Source: Proteobacteria bacterium UBA6156 (GTDB lineage Bacteria; Pseudomonadota; Alphaproteobacteria; UBA2136; UBA6156). From it: a stretch of 64,000 nucleotides of DNA. The notes under the pieces were generated by a model. That model was not told where the DNA came from and made no database searches. It was given only the letters and a program-made list of their open reading frames with translations. Both the position numbers and the translations under genes were made by a program. This document shows, piece by piece, positions 21,733 through 26,284 of this stretch. Every line of letters starts with the position of its first letter. Within the stretch, counting starts at the first letter, position 1. The DNA lies in the NCBI GenBank assembly GCA_002422365.1, contig DIUO01000031.1:11263-75262 (forward strand), written 5' to 3'.

Positions 21733-21772
21733 GGCTTTTAGCGCCAGTGTATGTTGTATGATGAATGATAAA

Positions 21773-21796
21773 GCCCCGGGTGAGGGGCCTTTTTTA
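21773..21796 (+). terminator. intrinsic terminator after ybjQ
   Basis: GCCCC-gggtga-GGGGC followed by CTTTTTTATT. Confidence 0.55.
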
Positions 21797-21913
21797 TTGG
21801 GCTATGTTGCTGAAATGACGTTGGTGGTGGGTGGAGGTTGTCAGTCTTGTATTACGAGTGACAGATTTTATGCATACGCTGGGTATACGAGCAACCCGAG
21901 AAAGGATACCCCC

Positions 21914-22453
21914 ATGACCTGTTATGAAACCGCTGTGTTTGACACCGCCGAGGCTGCCCTGCACTGGGCCGTGGAAGTGCTGCGCCGCCGCCGCCTGCCG
22001 CGCAACAGCAGCCTGTGGCGCGAGCTGGTGCAGGAAGCGGAAGACGTGGAGCGCCAGTGGGGCCTGGCCCGCAATATGCTGATACCGACCGACCCGGATG
22101 AGCGGCTGGGGCTGGCGCTGGATATTATGGAAGCGTTGGCCGGGCTGGACAGTGCCGACGCCCTGCTGCTGCGCCAATGGAGCATGGGAGACTGGGCCGA
22201 TGAGATGCGCTTGCGCGTGGCATTGGAGATTCAGGAGCGGTTGCGGCGGCAAGGGGTGCGGGTGCGGCTCAGCTACCGTTACAGTTATGACCAGCTGAGT
22301 GTGCTGGCCAAATGCCACAGAAAAACGGCCTGGCGGCGTGTGCAGAAGGCGCTGGAGCACTTGCAGCTTGCCTTGCAGGTGAAGGGTGTGGTGATGCGGG
22401 TGGAGGCGCCGGAGAGTGGGCTTGGTAACTGGGAGATGGGACTTAGGAGTTAG
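21914..22453 (+). CDS. hypothetical protein with sigma region-4-like HTH (tentative)
   Basis: ATG 21914 after GAGAAAGGA. The ORF-track start 21758 overlaps the ybjQ terminator. YSYDQLSVLAKCHRKTAWRRVQKALEHLQLAL looks like an HTH. Stop lies inside the heptamer repeat. Confidence 0.45.
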   Translation: MTCYETAVFDTAEAALHWAVEVLRRRRLPRNSSLWRELVQEAEDVERQWGLARNMLIPTDPDERLGLALDIMEALAGLDSADALLLRQWSMGDWADEMRLRVALEIQERLRRQGVRVRLSYRYSYDQLSVLAKCHRKTAWRRVQKALEHLQLALQVKGVVMRVEAPESGLGNWEMGLRS

Positions 22454-22462
22454 GAATTAAGG
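22442..22462 (+). repeat. heptamer triplet CTTAGGA-GTTAGGA-ATTAAGG, followed by GGTTTGGCA x2 (22464-22481)
   Basis: Contains the TAG 22451-22453 of the + ORF and the zur stop (complement of 22450-22452). Confidence 0.6.
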
Positions 22463-22899
22463 GTGGTTTGGCAGGTTTGGCAGGTGCCGAGGAGCTCGAT
22501 GTGTGAGGACTCCACCCGGAAGCCGTGGGCGCTGGCGGCGGTGTGGAGTTTCTCGAGCGGGGTGTGGAGTTCGGTTACCGTGCGGCAATGTTTGCAGATG
22601 ACGAGTTGGCCGGTGTGGTCTTCTCCGACATGTGGGCAGCCGATGTAGGCGCCCATGCTGGCGATATGGTGGATGAGGCCTGCGCCTTGCAAAAACTGAA
22701 GGGCGCGGTAGGTGATGGGCGGTTGGGTGTTGCCGAGGGCATCCATGATTTGATGCGCCGTGAGCGCCTGGTGGCTTTGCCAAATGATGCTGAGGACGGC
22801 GCGGCGGGTGTCGGTGAGGCGGAGATTGTTGGCGGCGCAGAAGGACTCGGCTTGCGCCATGGCGTTGGTTTGGCAGGTGGCGTGGTTAGGACAGGGCAT
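22450..22899 (-). CDS. zur: Fur-family metalloregulator, Zur-like
   Basis: 149 aa. RLTDTRRAVLSIIW...ITYRALQFLQGAGLIHHI winged helix. AYIGCPH...LVICKHCRTV...LLGTCQTCQ Cys pairs laid out as in Zur. Confidence 0.75.
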   Translation of the reverse strand: MPCPNHATCQTNAMAQAESFCAANNLRLTDTRRAVLSIIWQSHQALTAHQIMDALGNTQPPITYRALQFLQGAGLIHHIASMGAYIGCPHVGEDHTGQLVICKHCRTVTELHTPLEKLHTAASAHGFRVESSHIELLGTCQTCQTTLNS

Positions 22900-22908
22900 G
22901 GAACTAGT

Positions 22909-23379
22909 TTAGCATGGATTGACGAAATGTGGGTAGAGCGCTGATTTTTCCCAACCCGGGTGAGAGGGCAAGCGGCTTTGCAGGAAGGCGAGTGCCTCTG
23001 GATATGATTTGAGAGCTGGTTCGTCGCAGCGACTGATTTTCCAGAGTTCTCCCCATTCTACCCGGCAGGCCATGCGTTGGATGGCATGGTGGATATCGTA
23101 TTCTGGCGTTGGGCTGATGAGGTAAACCTGGTTGAAGAGCCAGTAGAGATGGAGACCTGTGGTTTGTACGGCTTTTTGGAATAATTCTGGGGTCGTGGCT
23201 GTTTCGTAGAGATTATCGAGAATGTCTTCGTGCTGGCTGCGAGGAAACGTATCGGTGCTAATGCCTGCAGCTTTGGCTAAGTTGCCACTGCCTGCGACAG
23301 TGCAATGGAGGCATTCATCCCAGACACTGGTAACAACCGGGGCTAAGATTTGGAGGAAGGTGAAGGTGGGTTGGTGCAC
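22909..23379 (-). CDS. hypothetical protein, short paralog of 23448..24287
   Basis: 156 aa. GTG start with no obvious RBS. Shares DECLHC..AGSG and GLHLYWLFNQVYLISPT...AIQRMACRVEWG with the upstream gene. Its stop is 9 nt from the zur start. Lower GC. Confidence 0.5.
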   Translation of the reverse strand: MHQPTFTFLQILAPVVTSVWDECLHCTVAGSGNLAKAAGISTDTFPRSQHEDILDNLYETATTPELFQKAVQTTGLHLYWLFNQVYLISPTPEYDIHHAIQRMACRVEWGELWKISRCDEPALKSYPEALAFLQSRLPSHPGWEKSALYPHFVNPC

Positions 23380-23409
23380 AGTATGAACTTTGCTTTGAAG
23401 TGAATGGGG

Positions 23410-23432
23410 GGAGGGGCGACGGGCGCCCCTCC
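23410..23432 (-). terminator. GC-rich hairpin between the two paralogs (terminator-like, no U-tract)
   Basis: GGAGGGGCG-acggg-CGCCCCTCC. A 9-bp perfect stem, 16 nt downstream of the stop of 23448..24287. Confidence 0.35.
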
Positions 23433-23447
23433 GGTTCGTGATGATCG

Positions 23448-24287
23448 TTAACAGTCGCGGCGATCAGGCGACTGGTTCTGGAGTTGGAGTACCGAGCTTG
23501 GCTTGGGCTTCTGCGACGGGTCGAGCGGAATTGCAGGCGCGCCGCAGCCCCCACAATTGTAGGTGATCAACCGCTCTCCGAGACCGAGTTCCTGACGCAG
23601 GAGCTCGGTGCCGGTGAGGGAGCCGAACCATGCGCTTGCCGGTTCGAACAACGGCCCCTGGACGGGGATGTTGTCGATGCCGAGCGGGTGCTCGCGCGTG
23701 AGGCCGTCGCGGATACGTTCCAGACCCTCGGCCGCATTGAGACTGAGGTGCTGATAGACGTAGGCGCGGGCGTCGTCGTTCGTGCGTTCGGCTTTCGGCA
23801 TGGTGCCGGTGAGGCCCCATTCCAAACGGAAGGCATGACGGCGAAACGCCCAGTCGAGGTCGACCTGCTCGGTGGGAGACAAGACGAATACGCCGTTGAA
23901 GAGCCAGTAGACCCAGATGCCGTGATCTTCGGCGAAGAGCCTGCGTGGCACATCGAACATGGCGATGCGGCGCATGCTCAGCAGCAGGGGGTGTGGGGCT
24001 TCGGCATCTGACGCCATGAAGCCGCGCTTGCCGGTGTAGGGATCGAAGCGGGTCGGGCCCGAGCCGGTTCCCCCGATCCAGCAGTGCAGGCAGTCGTCGA
24101 CGGGACCGTCGCTGCCCTGCATCTGGCGTGCCAAATGGACGAGCCGGTCGTAGGCTTCGCCGAGGTCTTCCGGCATAACCTGCCGGATGATGGCTTCGGC
24201 TTCGGCCTCGTGATCCGGATTGCCCGGAATGAGGCCTGCGTAGCTGATGCCACGAGCGGCAAGGAGGTGGTCGGCATTGAAGGACAT
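23448..24287 (-). CDS. hypothetical CxxC...CxxC protein, unknown family
   Basis: 279 aa. ATG 24287 after GAGGAAA. Motifs DDCLHCWIGGTGSG, GIWVYWLFNGVFVLSPT, AFRRHAFRLEWG and C-terminal YNCGGCG. No family recognised. Confidence 0.6.
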   Translation of the reverse strand: MSFNADHLLAARGISYAGLIPGNPDHEAEAEAIIRQVMPEDLGEAYDRLVHLARQMQGSDGPVDDCLHCWIGGTGSGPTRFDPYTGKRGFMASDAEAPHPLLLSMRRIAMFDVPRRLFAEDHGIWVYWLFNGVFVLSPTEQVDLDWAFRRHAFRLEWGLTGTMPKAERTNDDARAYVYQHLSLNAAEGLERIRDGLTREHPLGIDNIPVQGPLFEPASAWFGSLTGTELLRQELGLGERLITYNCGGCGAPAIPLDPSQKPKPSSVLQLQNQSPDRRDC

Positions 24288-24357
24288 ACAAGTTTCCTCG
24301 TTTTGAAATGGACAGGAATATGAGGCAAGCCTCGGGTGATGCGTTTGCTGAATAGCA

Positions 24358-24376
24358 TGTGTTAGGGATTAACACA
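24358..24376. promoter_or_regulatory. perfect inverted repeat TGTGTTA-N5-TAACACA upstream of the CxxC gene
   Basis: Read directly at 24358-24376, between the kup stop (24398) and the start of 23448..24287 (24287). AT-rich 7-bp arms with no U-tract, so an operator is more likely than a terminator. Confidence 0.3.
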
Positions 24377-24397
24377 AGGTGGGAGGGGCGGATTGGG

Positions 24398-26284
24398 TTA
24401 GATTTCGATGTGGTTGCCGATTTCTATGACCTGGTGGCGGGGGAGGTGGAAGTAGCTGACCGCCGATTGGGAGAGTTTGTCCATCAGGATGAAGATTTTC
24501 TCTTGCAGCGGGTTGAGTGCGGTATCTGGCGACGGGATGTAGGTGTGGGTGCTGAGGAAGTAGCTGAGGGACTCCGGGTGGCGCACGGTGAGGCCATGCT
24601 GGCTGAGGCTGTGGTTGAGCAGGTGAGGGACGTTGGGACGCTCGAGAAAGCCATAGGTGGCTTGCACGGTGGTGATGTTGTGGGGGTAGTGGCGCACGCT
24701 GAAACGCTCGGACGAGGGGTAGCGCGGGATGCGGGCGCGGGAGATTTTAAGAATGATGATTTGTGCGTGCAGCACCGCGTTGTGGTTGAGGTTGTAGATG
24801 AGGGCGGGGGGTGCGTGGTTGAGGTCGGACGTTAAAAACACCGCGGTGCGCCGCACGTGCGGCAGGGTGGGGTTGATGTTGGCGATGAAGTCCTCTAGCG
24901 GCGGGGTGTGGCTGGAGACGATGGTTTGGCTGGCTTCTCGGCCCTTTACCCACACATACATGACAAAAAAGATGGCGCTGCCCAAAGCCAGGGGGAACCA
25001 GCCGCCGGAGGGGATTTTGTGGAGATTGGCGGTGAAAAAAAGTGTATCTATAGTAAGAAACGTGCCCAAAAACAGCGCCACCAGCAGCGGGTGCCAGCGG
25101 TTGCGGTTGAGCAGGACGGTGGTGGCGAGGAGGGTGGTCATCAGCATAGTGCCCGTGACCGCGATGCCGTAGGCGCCGGCGAGGTTGGTGGACGACTGAA
25201 AACTAATGACCAGCAACAGCACCGCCACCAGCATGAGGTAGTTAAGGAACGGCAGGTAGATTTGCCCGGCGTTGTGGATGTTGGTGTGAACCACCTGCAT
25301 GCGCGGCAAGTAGCCCAATTGGATGGCCTGATGCGTGACGCTGTAGGCGCCGCTGATGACCGCCTGCGAGGCGATGACGGTGGCGACGGTGGTGAGGGCG
25401 ACCATGGGGTAGAGGAGGGCTTCTGGCACCATGAGGAAGAAGGGGTTGAGGAGGTTGCTTTCGTTTTGCAGCAGCAGGGCGCCCTGGCCGAAGTAGTTGA
25501 GCATGAGGGCGGGCCCGACGAGGAGGATCCAGGCCTTTTGGATAGGCTTGCGGCCGAGGTGGCCCATGTCGGCGTAGAGGGCTTCTCCGCCCGTGACGGC
25601 CAGCACCACCGCGCCCATGGTGAGGAATGCCATAAACGGTTGAGCGGCGGCAAAGTGAAGGGCGTGCACCGGATTGAGCGCCGCAAGCACCTGCGGCGCC
25701 TGGATGAGCTGGTTGAGACCCAGCATGGCGATAACCGAAAACCACACCAGCATGATGGGGCCAAACAGCGCGCCGACCTTGTGCGTGCCGAAGCGTTGCA
25801 AGCTGAACAGCAGGCTGAGGATAAGCACCGACAAAGGCACCACGTAGCCATTGAAGGCGGGGACGGCGAGCTGCAGGCCTTCCATGGCGCTGATGACGGA
25901 GATGCTGGGGGTGATGAGGGCATCGCCATAAAACAAAGCCCCGCCGACCAGCCCCAGCATGAGCACGCGCATGCGCTGGCGGGGGGTGGCGAATTGGTCG
26001 ATTGCCAGGGCGGTGAGGGCGAGGATGCCGCCTTCGCCGCGGTTGTCGGCCCGCATGACAATACTGACGTATTTGATGGTGACGACCAAGATGAGTGACC
26101 AGGCGATGGCGGAAAGGATGCCGTAGACGTTGAGGGGGTTTACATCTAACCCTGCGGCGTGGAAGGCTTCTCTCATTGTATAGAGGGGGCTGGTGCCGAT
26201 GTCTCCGAACACCACACCCAGTGCGGCGACAAAGAGGGCGGTGCGGGTTTGGTGCGGGGTTTCGGCGGTGGGGTGGGTTGTCAT
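24398..26284 (-). CDS. kup: potassium uptake protein Kup (KUP/HAK/KT family)
   Basis: 628 aa. ALGVVFGDIGTSPLYTMRE N-terminal signature, ~12 TM helices, cytoplasmic C-terminal domain. Confidence 0.95.
   Translation of the reverse strand: MTTHPTAETPHQTRTALFVAALGVVFGDIGTSPLYTMREAFHAAGLDVNPLNVYGILSAIAWSLILVVTIKYVSIVMRADNRGEGGILALTALAIDQFATPRQRMRVLMLGLVGGALFYGDALITPSISVISAMEGLQLAVPAFNGYVVPLSVLILSLLFSLQRFGTHKVGALFGPIMLVWFSVIAMLGLNQLIQAPQVLAALNPVHALHFAAAQPFMAFLTMGAVVLAVTGGEALYADMGHLGRKPIQKAWILLVGPALMLNYFGQGALLLQNESNLLNPFFLMVPEALLYPMVALTTVATVIASQAVISGAYSVTHQAIQLGYLPRMQVVHTNIHNAGQIYLPFLNYLMLVAVLLLVISFQSSTNLAGAYGIAVTGTMLMTTLLATTVLLNRNRWHPLLVALFLGTFLTIDTLFFTANLHKIPSGGWFPLALGSAIFFVMYVWVKGREASQTIVSSHTPPLEDFIANINPTLPHVRRTAVFLTSDLNHAPPALIYNLNHNAVLHAQIIILKISRARIPRYPSSERFSVRHYPHNITTVQATYGFLERPNVPHLLNHSLSQHGLTVRHPESLSYFLSTHTYIPSPDTALNPLQEKIFILMDKLSQSAVSYFHLPRHQVIEIGNHIEI

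Follow-up and report, generated by a model that had tools for sequence, protein, structure and literature searches.

Zinc-starvation regulons governed by the repressor Zur are well known, whereas the steps by which zinc is moved through the cytoplasm are poorly understood, and what is listed as their components derives for the most part from model organisms in culture. The described proteobacterial regulons are built around an operator for which a palindromic 7-1-7 box is one usual form (PMC6103462), and COG0523 GTPases are among their classical targets (PMC2770081, PMC5387054). Here we analyzed a 64,000-nucleotide stretch of DNA (hereafter the window) from the alphaproteobacterium UBA6156 (GenBank assembly GCA_002422365.1, contig DIUO01000031.1, positions 11,263 to 75,262), in which two adjacent genes coding for Cys-containing proteins, here called long and short, lie directly upstream of zur. 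The regulon to which they very probably belong, as judged from a shared operator and from gene order in relatives, resembles the proteobacterial Zur regulons in having a Zur-like repressor, a 7-1-7-type operator overlapping promoters, a COG0523 target and a zur gene that appears to be autoregulated (PMC6103462, PMC2770081, PMC5387054), and in some relatives nicotianamine synthase (NAS) genes stand under the same box. It differs in that ZnuABC and ZIP importers were not detected in 17 genomes of the taxonomic family, and in that its remaining members belong to two families for which neither Pfam nor NCBIfam holds a model. The locus places new protein families inside a classical Zur regulon frame.

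The genes are read from the minus strand in the order kup, long, short, zur. The long paralog (23448..24287, 279 aa) begins with an ATG behind a GAGGA Shine-Dalgarno sequence and encodes D64-x-C66-L-H68-C69 (24081-24098), N244-C-G-G-C248 (23544-23558) and a terminal C279 (23451-23453). The short paralog (22909..23379, 156 aa), which consists of the core domain only, begins with a GTG lacking a Shine-Dalgarno sequence and encodes D21-x-C23-L-H-C26 (23302-23319); its stop is 9 nt upstream of zur (22450..22899), a Fur-family gene of 149 aa. Open reading frames (ORFs), gene order, start codon and intergenic gap are all as described in an earlier sequence-only reading of the window, which had also taken long and short for paralogs on account of common blocks. 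These blocks, D(D/E)CLHC, G(I/L)(W/H)(V/L)YWLFN and A..R.A.R(L/V)EWG, are all present, and BLASTP aligns the two proteins with 31% identity over 98 aa (E 1e-12); the two ORFs are true paralogs. Relative to long, short is truncated by about 47 residues at the N-terminus and by about 120 at the C-terminus, and the low GC content noticed earlier was borne out, with a GC of 0.52 and a GC at third codon positions (GC3) of 0.57 against 0.79-0.83 in its neighbours.

Gene callers were inconsistent on the short ORF, some omitting it on 100% identical DNA, because its start signals are weak. That it is a pseudogene or an artefact was nevertheless ruled out by orthologs lying 3' of a long ortholog in contig L006 (153 aa, ATG start) and 3' of a long-type gene in L015 (P0012, 158 aa), and by pairwise dN/dS values of 0.27-0.30 (here and below, G labels denote genomes, G000 being the window's own and the others those of relatives, L labels their contigs or loci and P labels family proteins). 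Long, designated P0001, has orthologs with 47-71% identity and a dN/dS of 0.28, and both genes are under purifying selection. We also rejected a recent tandem duplication: in the tree, three core-only orthologs form a short clade of their own (support 100/100) outside subfamily A, to which long itself and P0002-P0007 belong, and this separation makes the duplication old. The short copy is an old core-only paralog with four conserved Cys of its own.

Neither paralog matches Pfam, NCBIfam, PHROGs or PADLOC above noise. The family amounts to 8 clusters among 5.8 billion sequences, and only 13 proteins were retrieved when 1.84 billion representatives were searched with a profile. A cluster look-up returned no name for any member in any source, the family alignment, run against species-representative genomes, detected nothing related outside the window's own group, and literature searches yielded no description of this Cys-protein family or of the membrane-protein family associated with it (see below). 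This is a very small, undescribed, cytoplasmic family found in one order of uncultured Alphaproteobacteria with small genomes; in GTDB the order holds 29 species-level genomes, all of them small. In addition to subfamily A and the short clade, it includes the full-length B-type members P0008 and P0009, the C-type members P0016 and P0017, and variants of 266-303 aa that have no C-terminal tail and carry an N-terminal Cys motif in its place, C-x-C-C-G in G001, G003 and G004 and C-P-V-C-G in G006. These N-terminal-Cys variants are homologous to the rest of the family (BLASTP E 1e-13 against P0016; hhalign probability 96.2%, E 2.4e-9). Mini-proteins reduced to the N-terminal helix plus the tail module (Y-N-C-C...C) were found as P0015 and in G006 (L036 8161-8472) and G005 (L089 1577-1963). 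The G006 mini-protein gene is divergent from the gene of a tail-less variant, with one box common to both, and the pair resembles the outcome of gene fission in this family; the G005 mini-protein gene adjoins a MinD/CooC-like gene without a Pfam match.

The promoter region of long carries a candidate Zur operator, TGTGTTA-ATCCC-TAACACA (24358..24376), with the ATG of long 73 nt downstream and the stop of kup 22 nt upstream of it. In relatives this motif precedes zur and COG0523; its core is TGTTA-N5-TAACA (24360-24374 in the window) and its consensus TGTTAAT-n-ATTAACA. In the genome from which the window comes (G000, a metagenome-assembled genome (MAG) of 1.27 Mb, 60% GC and 87% completeness, in which the window starts at C7:11263), this core occurs at exactly three sites, where about 0.3 would be expected from base composition. 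The three precede a COG0523 GTPase, a 146-aa membrane protein adjoining icd, and long, and the site before long is the sole exact one in the kup-zur interval. A position-weight matrix derived from relatives gave no further convincing site in this genome; its weaker matches at C3:7707, C44:7340, C29:10748 and C1:933, in AT-rich or phage-like contexts, were dismissed as Zur sites. Read by eye, a putative sigma-70-type promoter of long lies at 24349..24377 on the minus strand (-35 TTGTGT, 24377-24372; 17-nt spacer; -10 TATTCA, 24354-24349) and is overlapped by the box, while a consensus promoter and terminator scan reported no strong promoter and no matches. Similar promoters, in which the box comes after CTTGACA, are found at the COG0523 gene and at the membrane-protein genes. 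At the former, the box (C7:476-490) is a perfect 7-1-7 palindrome, TGTTAATGATTAACA (TGTTAAT-G-ATTAACA), placed right after the CTTGACA -35. The gene behind it (C7:492-1661) encodes a CobW/ZigA-type COG0523 GTPase with PF02492/PF07683 and a CxCC motif; the listed ATG is probably not its true start, a GTG at codon 9 being likelier.

Between long and zur there is no box, which fits co-transcription of long, short and zur, with zur most simply read from the boxed promoter. Long would then be the first gene of an autoregulated long-short-zur unit. The gap that separates the two paralogs contains a GC-rich hairpin on the minus strand, GGAGGGGCG-CCCGT-CGCCCCTCC (23410..23432), which has no U-tract and a folding energy of -24.1 kcal/mol (z -3.0; 0/200 shuffles equally stable). 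Hairpins occupy the equivalent position in L006 and L015. It may serve as an attenuator or as an mRNA stabiliser, and may adjust the level of long transcript relative to that of short and zur; an Rfam scan of 22300-24500 found no RNA family. The zur product matches PF01475 (E 2.2e-9), and its top NCBIfam match is Zur PRK11639 (E 1.5e-25, 89.9 bits against a cut-off of 167), followed by PerR at 2e-8. By eye, its Cys/His ligands follow what we take to be the pattern of Escherichia coli Zur, and the content of the regulon, with COG0523 and NAS, favours Zur as the identity of this regulator.

Family members, box and zur are also linked in relatives. Across the order, most genomes with a zur gene carry a Zur box, often in tandem, ahead of zur or of the gene before it. 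Every zur-containing genome with a family member has an exact box at most 100 nt upstream of that member (6/6: G000, G001, G002, G003, G004 and G006). In the near-complete G001 and G004, the sole exact sites are the tandem pair before the family member that precedes zur. The order kup-[family member]-zur is kept in the congeneric G001, G003 and G004, where an N-terminal-Cys variant whose start is boxed fills the slot. In G002, zur and a C-type member are divergent and two boxes lie in between, and tandem boxes precede COG0523 in G020. The sequence-only reading had proposed that a zinc-handling family stands next to zur: the linkage to zur and box that it looked for in other genomes is conserved, and its analogy to pairs of Cys-containing and Cys-lacking proteins has to be given up. 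Long and short do resemble the known C+/C- pairs (L31, L36, L33 and S14; DksA/DksA2) in that two paralogs stand by zur, and a Cys-less derivative exists in G016. However, both retain D-x-C-L-H-C (CxHC) and further conserved Cys, the losses having affected domains and not ligands, and both copies would sit in one Zur-controlled unit, whereas in the known pairs only the C- copy is under Zur control. The likeness to L31 and L36 drawn earlier was therefore abandoned.

The zur-side slot is held by different subfamilies in congeneric genomes (A plus short; N-terminal-Cys; C-type), as at L033 5706-6617, L034 5827-6681, L035 3073-3942 and L088 1546-2340, which points to replacement or to differential loss of old paralogs. 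This variety of subfamilies would also be consistent with the proteins acting as regulatory partners of Zur, that is, as co-transcribed zinc buffers or anti-repressors that tune its zinc occupancy, and in both G000 and G001 zur is directly preceded by a member on its own strand and has no separate box. We assign little probability to such a role: the family also occurs where no zur was detected, in G005 and G016, near a MinD/CooC-like gene or the membrane protein, and a partner of this kind is without precedent.

The same turnover in one slot within a genus, together with the patchy distribution of the family and a GC3 below that of the neighbours (0.57 in short and 0.62 in the G001 variant), could be expected of a horizontally acquired accessory tandem of the immunity or toxin-antitoxin kind, with no role in metal metabolism and a palindrome that is coincidental or unrelated. 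The sequence-only reading had offered a foreign immunity-type tandem as its alternative. We regard this as very improbable, with no PADLOC or PHROG match and no mobile-element genes nearby, purifying selection on both genes, a slot that is kept within the genus, and a Zur box whose palindrome recurs before zur and COG0523 across the order.

Near zur, some relatives carry NAS genes. In G006, zur is followed by a box, a NAS gene, and then the N-terminal-Cys variant, a box and the mini-protein gene; in G003, the NAS gene is divergent from zur and has a box. These genes come from two genera and match PF03059 with E values of 2.5e-57 and 6.9e-40. At L035 4004-4864 (G003) and L036 6439-7260 (G006), they adjoin zur and are convergent with the N-terminal-Cys variants. 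Their presence suggests that some relatives make a nicotianamine-type zincophore, which the window's genome would not have: NAS, the mini-protein and the CooC-like gene were all searched for there and not found.

The conserved residues of the family bear on what its products might do. Four to five Cys are conserved in the family alignment, and D-x-C-L-H-C is present in both paralogs. Of the two CxxC pairs ascribed to long in the sequence-only reading, CLHC holds up, whereas the C-terminal CGGC is not conserved as a CxxC: orthologs have Y-N-C-C or Y-N-C-H in its place, and the features common to long orthologs are N-C-[C/H] and an invariant Cys as the last residue. All three short orthologs have two more conserved Cys, in RMACRVEWG and RC(D/P)EP. 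In the G016 homolog, which sits on a long branch, CLHC, NCC and the terminal Cys are all missing together. This joint loss, and the shift of the Cys cluster between the termini in the tail-less members, suggest that the conserved Cys residues act as one site.

AlphaFold2 models, which were confident although built from shallow alignments, reached a pLDDT of 88.5 and a pTM of 0.88 for long, and 95 and 0.86 for short. Foldseek searches with the long model gave best E values of 0.66 in the PDB and 0.89 in BFVD (TM <= 0.34), the short model reached at best 0.31 in the PDB (TM <= 0.34), and the family profile matched nothing among PDB sequences at E <= 10; the predicted fold is without a match among solved structures in the PDB. 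No known function unrelated to metals, which would have spoken against the earlier suggestion of a zinc-handling factor, came out of the searches either. In the model of long, C-L-H-C runs from the last part of strand 63-66 into the beginning of helix 67-71, and N-C-G-G-C lies within a beta-hairpin at 241-249. Placing Cys at a strand-to-helix junction and in a hairpin is typical of Cys knuckle sites.

A CxHC at the N-terminus of a predicted helix may also be likened to the CPHC of DsbA, and with four to five conserved Cys and a DsbD-type gene 4 kb away in the window, the proteins might instead be redox-active CxxC or Fe-S proteins with no more than an indirect connection to zur. This is quite improbable in our view: no thioredoxin-fold or Fe-S family was matched (Pfam at E <= 1 for thioredoxin; Foldseek with both models), a periplasmic Dsb role is unlikely for proteins lacking a signal peptide, and the genomic partners are zur, COG0523, NAS and a membrane protein rich in metal ligands, not redox genes.

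Several non-Cys residues, namely D, H, G and A..R...R..W, are invariant even in the short copy, and they could form the active site (D64, H68, R150, R154 and W157) of an enzyme of the zinc-starvation response, either a zinc-sparing replacement or a step in the synthesis or recycling of a nicotianamine-type metallophore. Alternative enzymes are often included in Zur regulons (PMC2770081), nicotianamine-like zincophores belong to bacterial zinc acquisition (PMC10393844), and the N-terminal-Cys variants of G003 and G006 adjoin boxed NAS genes. An enzyme is unlikely all the same, considering that the window's genome has no NAS homolog, that no enzyme family is similar by sequence or fold (Pfam, NCBIfam, Foldseek and the PDB profile), that no nucleotide-binding motif was seen and that there is no known zinc-dependent paralog to replace. 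Likewise, the family resembles the COG0523 GTPases in being Cys-rich and apparently Zur-controlled, and the C-x-C-C-G of the N-terminal-Cys variants is like the COG0523 signature (PMC2770081), but it is a far smaller family, has neither P-loop nor G-domain and shows no similarity to these GTPases in sequence or fold.

The membrane protein of the regulon is encoded outside the window (G000 C1:23024-23521), behind a Zur box. It is predicted to have three helices, the first of which bears an invariant P-H-x-x-C-C, and it also has a loop of the form I-D-C-x(6-9)-C-x-H-x2-C-x-P-K-K and a His-rich tail. There is no Pfam match, hmmscan at E <= 1 yielding two noise matches and neither MerT nor MerC. 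Relatives of 141-182 aa were found at L037-L052 and at L004 5111-5536, L013 4152-4610 and L016 1998-2480. All 17 genomes of the taxonomic family encode the protein, as do 22/29 in the order, and its gene is divergent from zur in G011, G020, G028, L046 and L051. Distant members of the Cys-protein family are encoded directly upstream of it, in a TolB ... icd block, in L002 (G016), L004, L013 and L016. In the same block, upstream of the B-type gene, L013 (2582-3133) and L016 (429-1019) encode a conserved protein of 183-196 aa whose N-terminal part contains two hydrophobic helices; Pfam gave no match for it, and it was not found in the window's genome. The models for ZnuA (PF01297) and ZIP (PF02535) matched in 0/17 genomes of the taxonomic family, control genomes being positive. 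With the membrane protein in all 17 genomes and these importers in none, it is the strongest candidate for a zinc importer in these bacteria.

In the Mer relay, Cys pairs of the membrane proteins MerT and MerC hand Hg(II) to cytosolic Cys pairs of MerA. A likeness to this relay may be drawn at the level of architecture only: a small membrane protein of three helices, with vicinal Cys in the first of them and a Cys loop on the cytosolic side, would be encoded beside, or co-regulated with, a soluble protein that has Cys in a terminal segment. It differs from the Mer system in having no detectable homology to the MerT and MerC models of Pfam, in its control by Zur instead of MerR, and in its presumed zinc substrate and nutritional uptake.

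The explanation that we favour, with our confidence evenly balanced, is that long, short and zur form a Zur-repressed unit whose two novel products bind zinc and traffic or buffer it. When zinc is sufficient, Zn-Zur would sit on the TGTTA-N5-TAACA palindrome overlapping the promoter and the unit would be repressed; when zinc is scarce, long and short would be expressed together with the COG0523 metallochaperone GTPase and the three-helix membrane protein. D-x-C-x-H-C at the strand-to-helix junction, N-C-C/H in the hairpin and the C-terminal Cys would make up a thiolate metal site, with C66, C69, possibly H68, C245/C246 and C279 as the putative zinc ligands of long. The protein could then bind zinc and move or buffer it between the cytosolic Cys/His loop of the importer and either cytoplasmic clients or COG0523. 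Our best guess for the family is accordingly a cytoplasmic thiolate protein for zinc trafficking or buffering, and the trafficking role, taken by itself, seems plausible if slightly less than an even chance.

A bolder and rather doubtful version, which we hold somewhat unlikely, is that the lineage uses a novel zinc-uptake route in place of ZnuABC and ZIP, made up of a Zur-controlled, MerT-like three-helix importer lined with thiols and His and a cytoplasmic acceptor of novel fold. By ligand exchange, the acceptor's terminal Cys segment would draw zinc from the cytosolic Cys/His loop of the importer and pass it on to COG0523 or to clients; most members carry this segment C-terminally and others N-terminally, and in some it forms a separate mini-protein.

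Several observations weigh against zinc handling by Zur-controlled proteins. The closest orthologous pair, in L006, has kup upstream and a sigma-54 regulator downstream, with neither zur nor a box, which indicates that Zur control is not universal in the family; L004, L013 and L016 also have no exact boxes, and zur is off the contig there or undetected in the genome. The hairpin between long and short could end transcription, leaving short and zur without a recognised promoter. The score of the zur product is below NCBIfam's cut-off for Zur. In the TolB ... icd block, the family gene and the adjoining membrane-protein gene each have their own terminator hairpin and promoter, and TolB and icd are conserved, so that the adjacency is possibly inherited synteny and becomes weaker evidence of a functional link. 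A structural site that requires zinc would, moreover, be an odd thing to induce in zinc starvation. Finally, a genome-wide PF01475 search missed the window's own zur, although hmmscan gives it 38 bits, above the cut-off; negatives of such a search are risky for short or divergent proteins, and with a missed Fur-family gene in an 87%-complete MAG, calls of absence carry risk, those for ZnuA and ZIP having been repeated over 17 genomes.

If the favoured explanation is true, the lineage holds a new type of importer and a new zinc-handling protein, and offers a small, tractable system for the study of thiolate-based zinc hand-over. It seemingly runs its zinc response on a minimal set comprising Zur, COG0523 and two families described in no database. 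Whatever the mechanism, the analysis defines a Zur operator for the order, gives an orphan family a functional context and corrects its reading as a C+/C- paralog pair. To specialists in zinc homeostasis the result should be moderately surprising, and its basis is comparative genomics in uncultured organisms.

Some minor observations concern the sequences used and the surroundings of the locus. L039 (the G004 contig VAFM01000001.1), L040 and L041 are close relatives filed under implausible public names (Blastochloris viridis, Pseudomonas fluorescens and Pseudomonadaceae). The upstream neighbour kup (24398..26284, minus strand), which serves as context only, encodes a K+ transporter with PF02705 and PF22776. 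Downstream, a 231-aa ORF on the plus strand (21758-22453), without a match in Pfam, NCBIfam, PHROG or PADLOC, is convergent with zur, the two 3' ends overlapping by 4 nt, and has counterparts with 53-55% identity in G001 and G004.

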